In this document: piece by piece, positions 45,947 through 52,598 of the stretch
Position numbering within the stretch: position 1 is the stretch's first letter
How the letters are laid out: each line of letters starts with the position of its first letter
NCBI GenBank assembly: GCA_032250835.1
Contig: JAVVEA010000005.1
Coordinates: 134,402 to 198,401 of the forward strand
DNA length: 64,000 bases
Origin: a bacterium
GTDB lineage: Bacteria > SAR324 > XYD2-FULL-50-16
Reading direction: 5' to 3'
Position numbers and translations under genes: made by a program
The notes under the pieces: model-generated
Databases searched by the model: none
What the model was told of the DNA's origin: nothing
The model's input: the letters and a program-made list of their open reading frames with translations, nothing else

Positions 45947-46939
45947 ATGAAAGCTCTCAAAGTCGCCCTCGTATTCATTTTAGTGGTCAACGCCGGTTGG
46001 TCCCTGCTCAACTGGTTGAGCCCTGATCCAGAACCTATGCCCCCGCTGGCTCCGCCGGCCCAAACGGCCATGGTCCCCGCCGACACGGGTCTTGACCTGC
46101 CCGCTCTGGTAGGCTTGACCAAAGAAATCCGCTCTGGTCAAGAATTGGAGCGCCGCCTCAACGAGAAAGACGGCATCAACAACCTCGACCTGGACGCCAA
46201 CCAAAAGGTGGACTACCTGCAAGTCGAAGAGTTTGGCCAACCCACTGAAGGGGCCATCGGCTACAGCGTCTTCACCGAACCGGCCAAGGACCAACGCCAA
46301 GAGGTCGCCGAAGTGACGGTCCAAAAAAATGGGGACCGGGCCGAAATTCAGGTGATCGGCAACGAACAAATCTACGGCACCGACGCGATTTACAATGACT
46401 GGGCCCCGGTAGAGCGGGAAGTCGCGCAAACCGGACAGAGCGCCGGATCGCCGCCCTACTACCCCAGCTATTTCATGCCGCACCCTTTATGGATATCGCC
46501 CTTCGGGTTTGGTTACTACCCCCCTTATTTTAGTTTCTTCCCGATTCTGGGCCCCTCAATGTACATGAGCCGAGTCACCCACTACCGCTCTGGCGTGGCC
46601 CCAGGTGCAAACCGCCACCAAGCCACCCAAGGCAAAGCGCTCAACAACCCGAACAAGGGCAAATCCGCCGACCAAGGCGTTAAACGTAGCCTCAAGCGGC
46701 CCACCTCAACTCAGCGCCAATTCCAAGCGAGCAGCCGCCGCAACGTCGGCAGCGGAGGTTTTGGTCAAACCAAAGCCCGCGCCAGCGCCCCCAGCAGCAG
46801 CCGCCCGGCATTAGGGCAAGGTTCTAGCGGCGGTTTTGGACGCAATAGCGGCAGTAGCTTCGGACGCTCCAGCGGAGTCTCCAGCCCCTTACGCAGCCCA
46901 TCGACGCGTTCACGCAGCTTCAGCTTTGGCGGTAAATAA
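45947..46939 (+). CDS. Exported hypothetical protein with Gly/Ser/Arg-rich tail
   Basis: N-terminal TM segment; NNLDLDANQKVDYL motif; Pro/Tyr-rich segment; GGFG tail. Confidence 0.75.
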   Translation: MKALKVALVFILVVNAGWSLLNWLSPDPEPMPPLAPPAQTAMVPADTGLDLPALVGLTKEIRSGQELERRLNEKDGINNLDLDANQKVDYLQVEEFGQPTEGAIGYSVFTEPAKDQRQEVAEVTVQKNGDRAEIQVIGNEQIYGTDAIYNDWAPVEREVAQTGQSAGSPPYYPSYFMPHPLWISPFGFGYYPPYFSFFPILGPSMYMSRVTHYRSGVAPGANRHQATQGKALNNPNKGKSADQGVKRSLKRPTSTQRQFQASSRRNVGSGGFGQTKARASAPSSSRPALGQGSSGGFGRNSGSSFGRSSGVSSPLRSPSTRSRSFSFGGK

Positions 46940-46942
46940 TTT

Positions 46943-49603
46943 ATGAGCCAACCGCTACGCAGCCTGCTCTCGGTTTTACCCGACACGGGATACCAAGTGA
47001 TGGGTGACCCCAACCTGGACATCAACGGGTTCCACTGGGACCCGCAACATATCCAGCCCGGTTTTTTATTTGCCGCCTTAGAGCGCGAAGAATTCCAAGA
47101 GGAACATCTACGCCCCAACAGTTTAGCCCATTGGCGCGAGGCAGTCGCCGCCGGCGCGGTGGCGGTAATGACCCAGAAAGGGGTGCGCCTTGAGCTGCCC
47201 GAAGGGATCACCCAAATCGAGCTGTGGGACCTCAACCTGGGCTTAGCTCTGATGGCTAAAGCCTTTTGGGAAGCGCCCTTTGAGAAGCTGCGCCTAGTGG
47301 GCATCACCGGGACCAACGGAAAAACCACCACCTGCCAGATCTTAGACAGCATCTTGACCTATGCCCAGCGCCCGGCTGGCGTGATCGGCACCATCGGCAC
47401 CTTTTATCCCAGTGCCAAGGAACCAGCAGGACACCTGTCCAACCCTTTGGCCCCGGAGCTATTCCAGATCGGCGACCGGATGCGCACCGAAGGGGCCCAA
47501 GTGGTGATGATGGAAGTGACCAGCCATGGCATGGATTTCGACCGCAACAGCGCCTTGGATTATGACATCGCCATCTTCACCAACCTAACCCAAGACCACC
47601 TCGACCACCACCGGACCTTTGAGGCCTATAAGGCGGCTAAGCTCAAGTTCTTTAAAAACCTAGGCCAAAACCGCAAGAAAGCCCTAGCCGTCGTCAACCT
47701 AGACGACCCCTATGCCGACGAGTTTTTGGCGGTCCTAGACCCCCACGCCAAGTTACTGGGCCGCATCCGCAGCTTAACTTACGGGATCAAAAACAAAGAA
47801 GCCGAGTTGTTGGCCATCCCTAAGGAGATGACCGGCTCCTCCAGCAGCTTCGAGATCAAACTGCGCGGAGTGCCGCTCTGTGAGGTGCGCCTGCCCATGG
47901 CGGGCATGTTTAATATCTACAATGCCCTGGCGGCTTTCGGGGCCGGTTTGGGCTTGGAAGTACCGGTCGATACCTTGGCCAAAGGCCTAGAAAAGGCCCG
48001 CCAGATCGACGGACGCTTTGAAAAAATCGAAGGCCCCGGCGGAGCGCAAGTCTACATCGACTATGCCCACACCCCCGATGCCCTAGAGAAGATCTTGCGG
48101 GAGGTCTCTAATTTAACCTCCGGTAAACTCTATTGTGTCTTTGGCTGCGGCGGAGACCGCGACAAAACCAAACGCCCTCAAATGGGGATGATTGCAGGTC
48201 AAATTGCCGATGTGGTGATCGTCACCAGTGACAACCCCCGGACCGAAGACCCCAAGGGCATCTGCCAAGAGGTTTTATCCGGCATCCCCGAACGGCCCGG
48301 ACTGTTTCTAGAGCCGGACCGGAAAAAGGCGATTGAGCTGGCTTTAGAGTTAGCCAAACCCAAAGACTCTATCTTGATCGCCGGAAAGGGGCACGAAACT
48401 TACCAGATCATCGGCCACGAACGGCACCCCTTTTCGGATCGCCAGACCGTCTTGGACCATTTTTCGGTCCCCAAGGAACGCCACTACCGCGCTGAAGTGG
48501 TGGTCGACCGCGCGGCAATCCGCCACAATTTAGCGTTGCTCTTTGAAGAGAAAGCGCCGGACCTAAAGGTCATGGCCGTGGTCAAAGACGACGCCTTGGG
48601 CCACGGGATGGTGGAAACAGCCAGGATCGCCTGTGAGGCCGGGGTGCATTACCTGGGCGTGGCCACCATGAGTGAAGCGTTAGGCCTGCGTGAGGCGGGC
48701 TTGATCAACCACCCCATCTTGGTCTTTGGAGAGCGCAACCCTGAAGACCTAGAGATGGCGGTACGCAACTGCCTGTCCCTACAAGTCCAATCAACCGAGC
48801 GCATCGAACAAATCGGCGCATTGGCCCAAAGTTTGGGTCAGGTCACCAAGCTACACCTAAAGATCGACAGCGGCATGGGCCGATATGGCGTACGCCCCGA
48901 AGAAGCTTTGGCTTTAGCCCAACTGATCCAGGCCACCGAAGGGGTAGAGCTTGAAGGCTTGATGACCCATTTCGCCATGTCCGACGAGGCCGACAAAAGC
49001 TACGCCCACCAACAATGGGCTCGTTTTGAATTGGCCGCCAAGGCGCTGGAGCGCGCGGGACTCTTACCCCCCCTGGTCCATGCTTGCAACAGCGGTGGCT
49101 ACCTGGACCTGCCCTTTGCCCACGGGACCATGGTGCGGGTGGGTACCTTGATGACCGGCGTATACCCCTCAAAGGTTTGCCGCCAGATCAGCCTCAACGG
49201 GAGACAGCTAAAAGCGGCCTTAACGCTCCGGGCAAAAGTGGCCTTTTTAAAGGATCTGGTGCCCGGCGACAAGGTGGGCTACGGCATGCACTTCACCGCA
49301 GCGGCACCGATGAAAGTGGCGGTCTTGCCGATCGGCTACGGAGACGGCTACCCTAGGCTACGCAACCAAGGACAGGTTCTGATCCAGGGACAGTTCTGCC
49401 CCATCATTGGCGGCAACAGCATGGACGCGTTGATGGTTGACGTATCGCAGCTAAACCACCCCCAAATTGGCGATGAGGCGGTTTTGGTGGGACGTCAAGG
49501 CGACGAAGAATATACGGCCATGATGCTGGCCAAGGCAGTGGGCACCGTCACCTATCAGGTCCTAAGTGGCTGGACCCCACGGATCGAAAAACGCTGGATT
49601 TAA
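46943..49603 (+). CDS. MurE-like ligase fused to an alanine-racemase-like domain
   Basis: GTNGKTT, NLTQDHLD, DYAHTPD, GCGGDRD, DNPR, AGKGHE; then AVVKDDALGHG, DSGMGR, THF, VGYG, GYGDGY. Confidence 0.92.
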   Translation: MSQPLRSLLSVLPDTGYQVMGDPNLDINGFHWDPQHIQPGFLFAALEREEFQEEHLRPNSLAHWREAVAAGAVAVMTQKGVRLELPEGITQIELWDLNLGLALMAKAFWEAPFEKLRLVGITGTNGKTTTCQILDSILTYAQRPAGVIGTIGTFYPSAKEPAGHLSNPLAPELFQIGDRMRTEGAQVVMMEVTSHGMDFDRNSALDYDIAIFTNLTQDHLDHHRTFEAYKAAKLKFFKNLGQNRKKALAVVNLDDPYADEFLAVLDPHAKLLGRIRSLTYGIKNKEAELLAIPKEMTGSSSSFEIKLRGVPLCEVRLPMAGMFNIYNALAAFGAGLGLEVPVDTLAKGLEKARQIDGRFEKIEGPGGAQVYIDYAHTPDALEKILREVSNLTSGKLYCVFGCGGDRDKTKRPQMGMIAGQIADVVIVTSDNPRTEDPKGICQEVLSGIPERPGLFLEPDRKKAIELALELAKPKDSILIAGKGHETYQIIGHERHPFSDRQTVLDHFSVPKERHYRAEVVVDRAAIRHNLALLFEEKAPDLKVMAVVKDDALGHGMVETARIACEAGVHYLGVATMSEALGLREAGLINHPILVFGERNPEDLEMAVRNCLSLQVQSTERIEQIGALAQSLGQVTKLHLKIDSGMGRYGVRPEEALALAQLIQATEGVELEGLMTHFAMSDEADKSYAHQQWARFELAAKALERAGLLPPLVHACNSGGYLDLPFAHGTMVRVGTLMTGVYPSKVCRQISLNGRQLKAALTLRAKVAFLKDLVPGDKVGYGMHFTAAAPMKVAVLPIGYGDGYPRLRNQGQVLIQGQFCPIIGGNSMDALMVDVSQLNHPQIGDEAVLVGRQGDEEYTAMMLAKAVGTVTYQVLSGWTPRIEKRWI

Positions 49604-49604
49604 A

Positions 49605-50303
49605 ATGACCCCAGAAAGCGGAATGTGGGCCTTGGTGCTCGAAGGTGATTTGATTTCTCGCGCGGTGATGGCGCTCTTGCTACTGCTGTCGGTGGCTTCC
49701 TGGGGGTTGATCTTAGGTCGCTATAGAGCCCTGGCCCAAGCTAGCACACGCAGCGAAACCTTTTCACAGCGTCTGGAGCGACCTTTAGATATGGCGGTGG
49801 TCAAGCAGGTGGTGGAAAGTTCGCCCTACAGCCCCTTGCGGGAATTGGCCATAGAGGCCTATTTGCTCAAAAAGTCCGAAACGACCCCAAGCACCCTGGT
49901 GGCGAAAAACCGCCCGGTCACCCAAAGACTCCAACACACCCAATTCCTCGCTCGCTTGGAGCGGGCCCTAGAAGCTCGGCTTTTAGGCGAAGAAAAAAAG
50001 CTGCAAAAGGGATTGAGCCTACTGGCCACCTTAGCTAGTTCCTCTCCCTTCATCGGGCTTTTGGGCACCGTTTTGGGCGTGATCGACGCTTTGGCCGCCC
50101 TAGGCCGCGCCGGTGGGGCCCATCTGGCCGCCGTTGGGCCCGGCATTGCCGCCGCCCTGGTGGCCACCGCCTTAGGCCTCTTTGTGGCCATCCCCGCCTT
50201 GATTGCCCACAACCTGCTAAAATCCAGAGCCGAGGGACTAGGTGAGGAGGGGCGACGCTTCGGTTTGGAGCTGCTCAACCTCTTCGATCATGAGGAATCA
50301 TGA
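49605..50303 (+). CDS. tolQ: TolQ (MotA/TolQ/ExbB family)
   Basis: PFIGLLGTVLG, PGIAAALVATALGL..AIPA; tol gene context. Confidence 0.85.
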   Translation: MTPESGMWALVLEGDLISRAVMALLLLLSVASWGLILGRYRALAQASTRSETFSQRLERPLDMAVVKQVVESSPYSPLRELAIEAYLLKKSETTPSTLVAKNRPVTQRLQHTQFLARLERALEARLLGEEKKLQKGLSLLATLASSSPFIGLLGTVLGVIDALAALGRAGGAHLAAVGPGIAAALVATALGLFVAIPALIAHNLLKSRAEGLGEEGRRFGLELLNLFDHEES

Positions 50304-50704
50304 AGCGGCTCAAACGCGCCGAAGGTGCGGTTGCGGAAATCAACGTAACTCCTTTTGTGGACGTTTTGTTGGTGCTGGTGGTGGTCCTGCTGGTTGCTAG
50401 TCCCATTTTAGAGCGGCAGATCAAGATCGACTTACCTAAAGAACAACTCAAGGAACGCAGCGTTAAGGCCGACCGCCGCCTGATCGTCACCTTAGACGAC
50501 AAAGGCCGAACCTACCTGGGGCGAAAAAGGCTCAAGGAAGAAGAGCTATTCAATCAAGTGGGCCTCTGGCTGGCCGAACATCCCGGCGACCGGGTCAACC
50601 TGCGCGCCAGCCGCAAGGTGCGCTATGAGCAAGTCACCCACTTGATGGCCCGTTTGAAACAGGCCGGAGCCGAGCGCGTCGGTCTTTTGGTAGAAGAAGA
50701 GTGA
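50300..50704 (+). CDS. tolR: TolR (ExbD/TolR family)
   Basis: EINVTPFVDVLLVL. Confidence 0.88.
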   Translation: MKRLKRAEGAVAEINVTPFVDVLLVLVVVLLVASPILERQIKIDLPKEQLKERSVKADRRLIVTLDDKGRTYLGRKRLKEEELFNQVGLWLAEHPGDRVNLRASRKVRYEQVTHLMARLKQAGAERVGLLVEEE

Positions 50705-51396
50705 TGGAACGTCTGACCTTGACGCCCTTTGGCGTTTCCTTATTGGGTCATGCCTGCTTCTTGGCCTTGATTTGGGCAGTCGCCCACTGGTCCCCGCTGC
50801 CACCCGAACCCCTATTAGACGCTACGCTGGTCTTTGAAAAGGCAGGCGGCGGGTTACCGGCCCTTGAATCGCCCAAACCCGTTCCGGCACCGGTGGCCCC
50901 ACCGAGCCCACCAGAGCCCGAAAAGGCCCCCGAAGCGATCCGCTCTGCCGAGCCCCAAAAAAAGACTAAGCCCACGCCGGCTCAAGTGGAACCCAAACCC
51001 ATCGAAGCCGAAAAAAAACCGGTTGAAGCCCCACCGGTCCGGCCCCAACCGCCCGCCGAAACGGCGGGCAACGCAGAGGCCGGGGGCTCCGGTTTGCTTT
51101 CGACGCGCTTGAGTTCCATGAGTTATAAATCCCTGCTACGCCAAAAGGTAGAGGGACGCTGGAAAGCACCGCGCATCGAGCGAGAATACCAAATCTTGTT
51201 TATGGTGACCATCAAACCCGACGGAAGGATCGACCAGTTGGAACTGCGCGAAAGCTCTGGGTTAGACCTCTTAGACCAAGCCGCCAAAAAAGCGATCCTC
51301 GCCTCTGCGCCCTTCCCGGCTCCGCCGCAAGACATCTTAGAAGGCAAGCCGGTCTTTGAAGCTTGGTTCCGCTTCCGACCCGACGAGGCCCCTTGA
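50701..51396 (+). CDS. tolA: TolA/TonB-like protein
   Basis: TM segment with SxxxH motif, Pro/Lys/Glu linker, SSG..LDQAA..PFP C-terminal domain. Confidence 0.75.
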   Translation: MMERLTLTPFGVSLLGHACFLALIWAVAHWSPLPPEPLLDATLVFEKAGGGLPALESPKPVPAPVAPPSPPEPEKAPEAIRSAEPQKKTKPTPAQVEPKPIEAEKKPVEAPPVRPQPPAETAGNAEAGGSGLLSTRLSSMSYKSLLRQKVEGRWKAPRIEREYQILFMVTIKPDGRIDQLELRESSGLDLLDQAAKKAILASAPFPAPPQDILEGKPVFEAWFRFRPDEAP

Positions 51397-52598
51397 GGCG
51401 TTGGTTATTAGTCTGGATGCTGCTTTGGAGTGGCTCGATTCCGCTGCAAGCTCGCGAGTACATTGACATCACCGGAGCGACCTACGGCCTGATCAGCATC
51501 GCCCCGGGCCCCGGTGCCCAGACCCCCTTGGGCCGTGAGTTATTAGACATCCTGCAATGGTCCGGCCTCTTCGAGCTGTTGCCGGAGAACGCCCCGGCAG
51601 ACATCGAGTTGTCGCTGGATTTTCACGCCGACTTGGCCCGCCTGCAATTGACCGGCTTAGACGAGATGGTGCTCTACACCGGGGTCTTTAGCCTGCCCCT
51701 GACAGACCAGACCACCCAAGCCCGCGAGGAGGCCGAACGGATCATCCGCCGCCTGACCGGGGCCCGCTCGGCCATGAAAAGCGGCATCGCCTACATCACC
51801 AAATCACGGTCCGAAGGCCACCGTTTAGTGCTGACCGATTTCTTTGGCCGCAGCCAAACCACCCTGTCTCAGCCGGGCGGTGTCTTGCTCTTGCCCCGTT
51901 GGAACCCCGCCGCTAACCAACTAATCTACACCTACTTGGGCCGCCGGGGTGCCGAGGTGCGTAAACTCTCCTTAGCTGGAGGCGAGCGCCCCCTACTGCC
52001 GGACCGAGGGGTATTACTAGAAGCCGCCTTCACCCCCTATGAGGGCCGCTATTTGCTCTGTCTTTCCATCAATGGCAATGCGGATATTTACCAATGGGAG
52101 CAATCGGAAAAAACCTTCCATGACCTAACCCACCGTAGCAGCACCGAATCCAGCCCGGCACTTTCGCCAGATGGAAAGCAGCTTCTCTTCGTTTCAAACC
52201 GGTCCGGCTCTGTACAAATTTATCAAAAGGATTTAACAACAGGAGAGGTTTACCGCATGACCTTTGAAGGAACCTACAACGCCGAACCGGCCTGGAGCCC
52301 AAGCGGGCGGTTCTTTGCCTTCTCGGGACTGGTTGAGCGGCAATATGAAATCTTCATGATGGACGCCAAGGGCTTAGCCCAGCGCCAAGTCAGCGAAGGC
52401 AAAGGCAGCAAAGAGCAACCTCAATTCTCACCTGACGGGCGGCAGCTGTTGTTTGTTAAAAAGCAGCAGGGCGTTCAGAAGTTATATTTAATGCGTATCG
52501 ATGGCAGCTATGTCCGCCGCCTCACCGATTCGCCCTCGAAAGTGGAGGAATACAACCCCGCTTGGAGCCCCAAGGAGATCCGATGGCCCGCCTATTAA
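51393..52598 (+). CDS. tolB: TolB
   Basis: YIDITG N-terminus; PD40 repeats (SPDGK, WSPSG, FSPDG). Confidence 0.85.
   Translation: MRRWLLVWMLLWSGSIPLQAREYIDITGATYGLISIAPGPGAQTPLGRELLDILQWSGLFELLPENAPADIELSLDFHADLARLQLTGLDEMVLYTGVFSLPLTDQTTQAREEAERIIRRLTGARSAMKSGIAYITKSRSEGHRLVLTDFFGRSQTTLSQPGGVLLLPRWNPAANQLIYTYLGRRGAEVRKLSLAGGERPLLPDRGVLLEAAFTPYEGRYLLCLSINGNADIYQWEQSEKTFHDLTHRSSTESSPALSPDGKQLLFVSNRSGSVQIYQKDLTTGEVYRMTFEGTYNAEPAWSPSGRFFAFSGLVERQYEIFMMDAKGLAQRQVSEGKGSKEQPQFSPDGRQLLFVKKQQGVQKLYLMRIDGSYVRRLTDSPSKVEEYNPAWSPKEIRWPAY

Follow-up and report, generated by a model that had tools for sequence, protein, structure and literature searches.

A MurE-racemase fusion gene upstream of tolQRAB in a SAR324 order in which MurC and MurD were not found

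We analysed a window of 64,000 nt from a SAR324 bacterium (GenBank assembly GCA_032250835.1, contig JAVVEA010000005.1, positions 134,402 to 198,401 of the forward strand), in which one open reading frame (ORF) of 886 codons encodes a MurE-type ligase followed by a racemase. The sequence-only reading of this window had described the ORF as a complete MurE-like ligase joined to an Alr-fold racemase, and Pfam, NCBIfam and fold comparison all bear this out. Four Pfam domains were matched along the protein (Mur_ligase_M at 121-334, Mur_ligase_C at 357-483, Ala_racemase_N at 521-742 and Ala_racemase_C at 759-884), and both halves exceeded the curated NCBI cut-offs (MurE equivalog and alr). The motifs quoted in the earlier reading (WDPQ...EREEFQEEH, HLSNP, VTSDNPRTEDP, VVKDDALGHG and IIGGNSMD) are all found in the translation. 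An AlphaFold2 (AF2) model built from 49 fused homologues gave a mean predicted local distance difference test score (pLDDT) of 89.6 and a predicted template modelling score (pTM) of 0.53; pLDDT dropped to 72-76 near residues 501-520, which span the linker. The features of the fusion, its neighbours and a second locus of the same genome are listed in Table 1.

Table 1. Positions of the fusion gene, its parts and neighbouring genes in the window, and of the mpl locus elsewhere in the genome (G000). KD/GG denotes the racemase clade described in the text; PLP, pyridoxal phosphate; meso-DAP, meso-diaminopimelate.
Feature	Position	Strand	Basis
Whole MurE-racemase fusion ORF, 886 aa + stop	46943..49603	+	ORF list, translation, Pfam, NCBIfam
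MurE half with its three Mur-ligase domains, aa 1-507	46943..48463	+	NF001126 match 14-506, TIGR01085 match 25-504
Domain-1 variant motif, aa 32-60, WDPQ...EREEFQEEHLRPNSL for canonical DSR...G..DGH, with 7-aa insertion	47036..47122	+	MurE alignment
ATP P-loop GITGTNGKTT, aa 120-129	47300..47329	+	E. coli MurE alignment; invariant in 49 fused proteins
Lys233, aligned with carbamylated Lys of E. coli MurE (AAK)	47639..47641	+	Alignment; invariant column
DNPR, aa 430-433, predicted meso-DAP carboxyl-binding motif	48230..48241	+	Alignment; D430 N431 P432 R433 invariant
Linker between ligase and racemase, aa 508-516	48464..48490	+	Gap between NCBIfam envelopes
PLP racemase half of Alr fold, aa 517-886, KD/GG clade	48491..49600	+	TIGR00492 match 517-885, fold, tree
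Lys548, predicted PLP Schiff-base/catalytic Lys in VVKDDALGHG	48584..48586	+	G. stearothermophilus Alr alignment; invariant
Tyr780, predicted second catalytic base in VGYGMHF	49280..49282	+	Aligned with vsYGatY of G. stearothermophilus Alr; nearly invariant
GGNSMD, aa 823-828, for GR(I/V)CMD; entryway Arg replaced by Gly, Met and Asp retained	49409..49426	+	Alignment
330-aa protein, no family	45947..46939	+	No Pfam family; stop 3 nt ahead of fusion ATG
tolQ, MotA/ExbB family	49605..50303	+	ATG at 49605
tolR, ExbD family	50300..50704	+	Domain family match
TolA-like protein, TonB_C domain	50701..51396	+	Domain match
tolB, PD40 beta-propeller	51363..52598	+	Domain match
Mpl-type ligase (480 aa) and 419-aa gene, locus L104	G000:C42:104878-107576	-	4-nt overlap

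In a large protein collection we found approximately 50 proteins of 880-940 aa that carry the same four Pfam domains at 43-65% identity, under names such as SAR324 cluster and Deltaproteobacteria metagenome-assembled genome (MAG). The nearest named genome locus is in a Candidatus Lambdaproteobacteria MAG (65% identity). A stop codon between the halves, which the sequence-only reading had considered, is not present: the translation has no internal stop and the architecture recurs in these ∼50 proteins. To follow the gene through the phylum we used a sample of 61 genomes (G000, to which the window belongs, and 60 others) in seven families, f1 to f7, where f1 is the family of the window and f1-f5 make up its order. 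The full-length fusion was present in 12 of the 61 genomes, namely all 11 of f1 and G040 of f5. An assembly or frameshift artefact was ruled out by the recurrence of one architecture in ∼50 independent proteins and 12 of 61 genomes. In G026 (f4) and G014 (f3), murE and an alr of the same type are adjacent or overlapping but separate, and in G023 and G006 (f2) the two genes lie far apart. Because adjacent separate genes persist in two sister families, the fusion probably arose from a murE-alr gene pair. The outgroup of the MurE tree (FastTree) consisted of the best matches to the query, and the tree is not read for a donor or a direction of transfer.

The MurE half scored 462.8 against NF001126 (MurE equivalog, cut-off 373) and 445.9 against TIGR01085 (cut-off 257.3). 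It is the single match above the murE cut-off in G000 (43 contigs, 97% complete), where family model, phmmer and blastp found no second MurE, and where phmmer with five Mur-ligase queries against 13,467 six-frame ORFs returned three Mur-ligase-family genes in total. Every genome of the order (16 in all) likewise gave exactly one MurE match. Alignment with E. coli MurE showed that the P-loop, EV(T/S)SHG, the AAK lysine, GCGGDRDK.KRP, DNPRTE.P and GKGHE.YQ have been retained, and these positions are invariant across 49 fused proteins. The three-domain fold, domain 1 included, is also preserved in the model: residues 2-508 matched E. coli MurE (1e8c_B) with a Z score of 42.4 over 479 residues (root-mean-square deviation, rmsd, 2.2), residues 3-512 matched S. 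aureus MurE (4c13) at Z 45.1, and M. tuberculosis MurE was matched at Z 40.6. The DNPR motif binds the free carboxyl of meso-DAP according to the available part of a structural account of MurE (PMC3829189). Since this motif is intact and dapF is present in G000, the incoming amino acid is most likely meso-DAP. Judged by these sequence features, the MurE half is a housekeeping enzyme rather than a spare copy.

This bears directly on the proposal of the sequence-only reading that the gene encodes a specialised extra MurE paralogue, which would join an uncommon amino acid, once racemised, to an acceptor of a non-standard kind and so modify the envelope beside normal peptidoglycan. The gene does lie outside the remnant of the dcw (division and cell wall) cluster and adjoins tolQRAB, as that reading had it (immediately after it come tolQ, tolR, a TolA-like gene and tolB), and motifs are altered in both halves. 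The location is uninformative, however, because all dcw genes are scattered in G000, with the remnant itself on contig C22 and ftsW-murG on C7. A paralogue is highly improbable given that neither G000 nor any of the 16 order genomes has another MurE, and that DNPR and the other meso-DAP-site residues are intact; as the only MurE above cut-off in a 97%-complete genome, with its catalytic motifs unchanged, the protein does not fit the description. The earlier reading had suggested looking for a separate murE, alr and dapF. No other murE was found, and both a canonical alr (on C11) and dapF are present, so the fusion is the only murE of the genome but not its only alr.

Domain 1 of the ligase is where the order departs from canonical MurE. 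We aligned this region from 50 fused, 4 split, 8 family-f7 and 25 outgroup MurE sequences. The canonical DSR...G..DGH motif, which we take to contact uridine diphosphate (UDP), was found in 8 of 8 f7 and 24 of 25 outgroup sequences. Every fused (50) and split (4) MurE of the order instead has WD(Y/P/F)...EEEFQE.HI..NSL together with an acidic insertion of seven residues, and this WD...EEEFQE version is also carried by P0088, a stand-alone outgroup MurE. TTPE is replaced by LSNP in most members of the order (HLSNP in the fusion). In the MurF-like protein of G000 itself, DSR...DG is canonical. The altered motifs thus look like clade signatures, not decay. Because the phmmer alignment with S. aureus MurE (4c12), a bona fide UDP user, begins only at query residue 83, sequence divergence in domain 1 appears to occur in UDP-using MurE enzymes as well.

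The racemase half scored 318 bits against TIGR00492 (alr, cut-off 168), and model residues 511-886 matched Alr 4y2w_A at Z 46.8 over 371 residues (rmsd 2.0). Its score was below the cut-off of NF008897 (MurF/alanine racemase; 268.1 vs. 804, with the racemase part alone matching) and below those of the VanT serine racemase models NF033131 (261.1 vs. 460) and NF033132 (141.3 vs. 900). The earlier statement that the catalytic Lys and Tyr are kept was confirmed by alignment with G. stearothermophilus Alr, in which K548, Y780, R732, R647, K640 and H676 of the fusion are aligned and conserved family-wide. Equivalents of K39, K129, R136, H166, R219, Y265', Y284', M312', D313' and Y354 of the G. stearothermophilus enzyme are retained, several of these residue numbers being those we take to apply to it. 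The family-wide differences are VKD(D/N)ALGHG for VKANAYGHG, GGN(S/G/A)MD for GR(V/I)CMD, GYGMH for SYG, and THFAQSDE. Among the 119 nearest stand-alone homologues (44-59% identity), which are annotated as alanine racemase in, for example, Verrucomicrobia and Calditrichota, "KD" is present in 115 and "GG" in all 119. In a quick maximum-likelihood tree, KD/GG proteins of all three kinds (fused, split and stand-alone) formed a single clade against canonical Alr, with a Shimodaira-Hasegawa-like approximate likelihood ratio test (SH-aLRT) value of 100. The motif changes noted in the sequence-only reading are therefore real and family-wide in both halves, but those of the racemase are not specific to the fusion.

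In G005, G040 and G026 no Alr other than the MurE-linked copy was above cut-off, and the G061 MAG gave no Alr-family gene apart from one of the KD/GG type; f6 genomes have a single Alr, of the canonical type. The genomes in which no other Alr was found give weak support to the view that the racemase domain is a working alanine racemase. A stand-alone KD/GG racemase (VKDQAYGHG, GGNAMD) at L009:677-3088, on a MAG contig labelled uncultured Cytophagia, adjoins a divergent GARS-like ATP-grasp protein and was the only Alr-family gene that this MAG yielded.

To our knowledge, the four Mur ligases and a source of D-Glu are regarded as almost universal among bacteria that have a wall. G000 contains murA, murB, a MurF-like gene, ddl, mraY, murG and ftsW. 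MurE above cut-off was found in 16/16 genomes of f1-f5, 0/32 of f6 and 13/13 of f7, and MurD in 0/16, 0/32 and 13/13, respectively. A true MurC, defined as a protein that scores above the MurC cut-off and above its own Mpl score, was found in none of the 16 genomes of f1-f5, none of the 32 of f6 and 12 of the 13 of f7. Genes of the MurC/Mpl type number one per genome in f1-f5 and one in 30 of the 32 f6 genomes (none in G044 and G060), with the Mpl score exceeding the MurC score in both groups; f7 genomes have two or three, a MurC-type gene and an Mpl-like copy. In G000, the best score against the MurD family model was 73 bits, blastp and phmmer with Bacillus MurD gave weak cross-matches, and tblastn with three f7 MurD proteins detected no trace. 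Of the 48 f1-f6 genomes in which MurD was not found, three consist of a single contig (G006, G023 and G038). The G061 MAG had neither a MurD above cut-off nor a homologue of the 419-aa protein described below; its completeness is not established, which makes it uninformative on this point. MurI and the D-amino-acid transaminase Dat were above cut-off in 0/61 sampled genomes each, and the sole match in G000 to an L-Ala-D/L-Glu epimerase of the MR/MLE type (enolase superfamily) was enolase itself. The distribution suggests that the early ligase steps of the order have been rewired. The replacement of the domain-1 motif would coincide with this, since it occurs in an order without MurC and MurD; the coincidence is a correlation, not a test.

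Two candidates were set aside. DapF as the function needed from the racemase was rejected because dapF is present, and a fusion protein on C40 was rejected as a candidate peptide ligase for want of any link to the pathway; the latter (G000:C40:39762-41693, + strand) is a 643-aa fusion of an S-adenosylmethionine methyltransferase and an ATP-grasp domain of the D-Ala-D-Ala ligase type. Family f6, which belongs to the same class as G000, retains one other Mur ligase beside the Mpl-type gene (MurE 0/32), and eight f6 genomes encode a protein of 935-979 aa with a weak MurE match, which we would guess to be cyanophycin-synthetase-like. In f7, murD lies outside a dcw context (loci L106-L109), and in three of the four loci its neighbour is a gene of ∼385-392 aa with weak similarity to G000 C22:176406-177467.

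The only MurC-like gene of G000 passed the mpl model (410.3 vs. cut-off 388.7) and failed the murC model (294.8 vs. 335.1). In 7/7 order genomes examined the Mpl-type gene is followed by a conserved gene for a 419-aa protein, with which it overlaps by 4 nt in G000. None of seven members of the 419-aa family had a Pfam or NCBIfam match, and the family is named "hypothetical protein" in cluster names and in Atlas. The AF2 model of the 419-aa protein (pLDDT 88.7) best matched BshC (4wbd_A, Z 15.0 over 328 residues), followed by class I lysyl-tRNA synthetase (LysRS, Z 9.7) and then by GlnRS, ArgRS, CysRS, GluRS and MshC. Its conserved motifs include TSHHxTP and GKKSxKV, which by our reading resemble the HIGH and KMSKS motifs. 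With profile A1, the protein was detected in 16/16 genomes of f1-f5, 28/32 of f6 and 0/13 of f7, the mirror image of MurD. Since the sampled genomes are kin, this mirror pattern amounts to few evolutionary events. An exhaustive profile search returned 567 relatives of the 419-aa protein, two of which are fused to MurC/Mpl-type ligases (P0324, 898 aa; P0348, 631 aa). In four f6 genomes, no conserved neighbour of the 419-aa gene was found.

The explanation we favour, and consider somewhat better than evenly supported, is that the fusion serves as the housekeeping meso-DAP ligase and as an alanine racemase within a rewired stem-peptide pathway. The order has one Mpl-type ligase and a BshC-like protein and no recognisable MurC, MurD, MurI or Dat, and therefore the fusion appears to belong to a rewired pathway towards the stem tripeptide. 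The N-terminal half would activate the gamma-carboxyl of D-Glu with ATP and then add meso-DAP, and the C-terminal PLP racemase would make D-Ala for Ddl and MurF. As the active site of Alr is built across a dimer, the racemase half should dimerise the fusion protein, and the fusion may co-ordinate the two supplies. The gene would be transcribed together with that of a predicted membrane-anchored 330-aa protein and with tolQRAB.

Several results weigh against this explanation. The Pfam N-domain model PF01225 had no match in the fusion, and DSR...DGH has been lost from domain 1, the domain that holds the uridine site in the available part of the same MurE account (PMC3829189). With neither MurC nor MurD, the making of the usual MurE acceptor is unaccounted for, and the lack of a D-Glu source among the genes searched for leaves a gap that the fused racemase might fill. 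The PLP motif AVVKANAYGHG is termed absolutely conserved in Alr in the available text of PMC3146814, and the fused racemase departs from it with AVVKDDALGHG. Eight residues of the entryway are given as conserved in the same text (inner layer Tyr', Tyr, Tyr' and Ala; middle layer Arg', Ile, Arg' and Asp). Five of the eight are identical in the fusion (three Tyr, one Arg and Asp), Ile is replaced by Val, and two of these "strictly conserved" residues are changed outright, a middle-layer Arg to Gly and the Ala to Ser. Because G000 has a second, canonical Alr (C11:325253-326359, with AVVKADGYGHG and GRVCMD), its D-Ala supply need not involve the fused copy. Finally, the assemblies of G005, G040 and G026, in which the MurE-linked copy appeared alone, are fragmented or 86-88% complete, and G004, a congener of G005, has a canonical Alr.

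As an alternative, the stem tripeptide might be assembled away from the nucleotide: the MurE half would add meso-DAP to free L-Ala-D-Glu (or D-Glu), the protein resembling BshC and class I aminoacyl-tRNA synthetases (aaRS) would make the L-Ala-Glu bond, and the Mpl-type ligase would load the tripeptide onto UDP-MurNAc (MurNAc, N-acetylmuramic acid). Loading of the tripeptide onto UDP-MurNAc is the normal Mpl reaction. Consistent with such a route, the uridine-site motif, which f7 MurE and the MurF of G000 keep, has given way to an acidic EEEFQE insertion in the 50 fused and the 4 split MurE proteins alike; the Mpl-type ligase stands alone in the order with no MurD; mpl is paired with the 419-aa gene wherever this was examined in the order (7/7); the model of the 419-aa protein matches BshC and class I LysRS; and P0324 and P0348 are natural fusions of the two protein types. 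On the other hand, the fold of domain 1 is still that of MurE (Z 42-45, residues 2-512), the UDP-using S. aureus MurE is also divergent there, and most of the contacts to the MurE product are made by domain 2, which is conserved here (PMC3829189, in the part available). Family f6 lacks MurE and yet has the Mpl-type and BshC-like proteins, so that this route does not explain the whole clade, and the co-distribution represents one or two evolutionary events rather than many independent ones. We regard assembly away from the nucleotide as unlikely, although it deserves attention.

A further alternative is that the fused racemase does not act on alanine, or not on alanine only; it might racemise Glu or epimerise an intermediate of the gamma-Glu-DAP type and so provide the D-Glu stereocentre that is missing, or act on a diamino acid for the ligase domain. 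No MurI (0/61), Dat (0/61) or dipeptide epimerase of the MR/MLE type was found, a canonical Alr is already present in G000, and the copy in question is joined to murE or lies beside it in f1, f3, f4 and f5. Throughout the family, Gly stands in for the entryway Arg, and the PLP motif has acquired an Asp and lost a Tyr (KANAYGHG to KDDALGHG). In the G061 MAG, the KD/GG gene adjoins a divergent GARS-like ATP-grasp ligase. The constricting Tyr pair of the inner layer (equivalents of Tyr265' and Tyr354), which limits Alr to substrates of small size, is nevertheless retained, as are the equivalents of Tyr284', Arg290' and Asp171; the protein clears the alr equivalog cut-off by a wide margin and stays below that of VanT (261 vs. 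460); the new acidic residues would seem ill-suited to a Glu side chain; and the KD/GG type is the sole Alr found in some genomes. Other routes to D-Glu are also described, namely ATP-dependent epimerisation of the MurL type (PMC8788868, PMC5808125) and a bifunctional DapF (PMC5885031), each cited here from the available part of its text. A substrate other than alanine is therefore rather doubtful, and alanine racemisation as part of the housekeeping role stays the preferred assignment.

The two preceding alternatives can be combined. The BshC/aaRS-like protein, as an adenylating enzyme, and the Mpl-type ligase would then replace MurC and MurD in a route not described before, the fusion would add meso-DAP to free D-Glu or L-Ala-D-Glu while its PLP domain sets the D-configuration for which MurI is responsible elsewhere, and Mpl would load the tripeptide onto UDP-MurNAc. 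This combined route we consider quite improbable.

Compared with canonical MurE, the fusion is alike in its three-domain fold, in ∼35% identity, and in the P-loop, the carbamyl-Lys position, DNPR and GKGHE. It differs in the missing DSR...DGH, the acidic 7-aa insertion, LSNP in place of TTPE, the fused racemase, and a genome without MurC and MurD. Canonical Alr (G. stearothermophilus 1SFT/1BD0, C. difficile 4LUS) has the same fold as the racemase half (Z 43-47, 33-38% identity) with catalytic and PLP residues aligned, but lacks the KD/GG-clade signatures VKD(D/N)ALGHG, GGN.MD, GYGMH and THFAQSDE. Among published architectures, the nearest is the MurF'-Alr chimera found in Phocaeicola dorei and in other Bacteroidota and Chloroflexota, in which an N-terminal part of Mur-ligase fold is likewise followed by a C-terminal Alr. 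In the available text of that study, the chimera is termed a third structural type of Alr, prefers alanine, and has its racemase modulated by the ligase-like part, and MurE appears as an outgroup only (PMC13726279). The N-terminal part of the chimera is an extra MurF-like copy in the presence of a separate MurF, as far as the same text goes, whereas here it is of MurE type and the only MurE. Two pathway steps are also joined in one polypeptide, with other partners, in MurE/MurF (NF008896; PDB 8f5d), MurC/Ddl (NF011171) and the MurB/MurC of Verrucomicrobium (PMC4803751, available part); the MurC/Ddl case indicates that fused steps need not be consecutive.

The Xanthomonas MurD2/MurL system also operates without MurI or Dat, and there the gene of an AMP-forming enzyme with a domain of unknown function adjoins that of a Mur ligase, which parallels the pair of mpl and the 419-aa gene (PMC8788868, PMC5808125, in the parts available). 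The Mur ligase in Xanthomonas is of the MurD type, none of which was found here, and the 419-aa protein is likened to MurL by logic only, not by homology. A full-text search gave no paper on a MurE-Alr fusion or on peptidoglycan precursor synthesis of the SAR324 type, although the supplements of PMC13726279 could list other chimeras. In our rating, the fusion joins the known Mur-ligase fusions, and the more novel lead is its setting, in which MurC and MurD have been lost and mpl is paired with the BshC-like gene. The context outweighs the fusion itself, with no MurC or MurD found in 48 genomes and no MurI or Dat in 61; if confirmed, this context would define a new branch at the start of peptidoglycan precursor synthesis, in a lineage that is abundant in the environment. 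It can be put to a direct test with mpl, the 419-aa gene, murE-alr and murF, four genes in all.

The genes around the fusion are tightly packed, the fusion stop codon occupying 49601-49603 and the tolQ ATG starting at 49605. A promoter and terminator scan at the locus gave no signal above shuffled sequence. Among sequencing runs, no RNA run was listed as containing the sequence, and only two DNA runs contained about a tenth of the sampled words. The gene for the 330-aa protein lies directly upstream of murE(-alr) in six of eight loci of relatives (G001, G003, G059, G004, G040 and G026). No Pfam family was found for this protein, and its Atlas entries comprise only hypothetical proteins; it has an N-terminal hydrophobic helix, a conserved core (GINNLDLN.D.KVDY) and a tail rich in Gly, Ser and Arg.

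The dcw remnant of G000 (C22:311220-318769, - strand, locus L160) contains rsmH, an ftsL-like gene, a class B penicillin-binding protein, a 269-aa protein, class I lysS, a metallo-beta-lactamase-fold hydrolase and mraY. murE and murF usually lie at the place that lysS occupies in this remnant. The MraY encoded there is divergent (179 bits vs. cut-off 192). Directly upstream of ftsW-murG, a 1,723-aa ORF (G000:C7:62590-67761, - strand) consists almost entirely of acidic repeats rich in Glu and Asp (EEPELEGEE...), preceded by an N-terminus that, judged by eye, resembles a response regulator.

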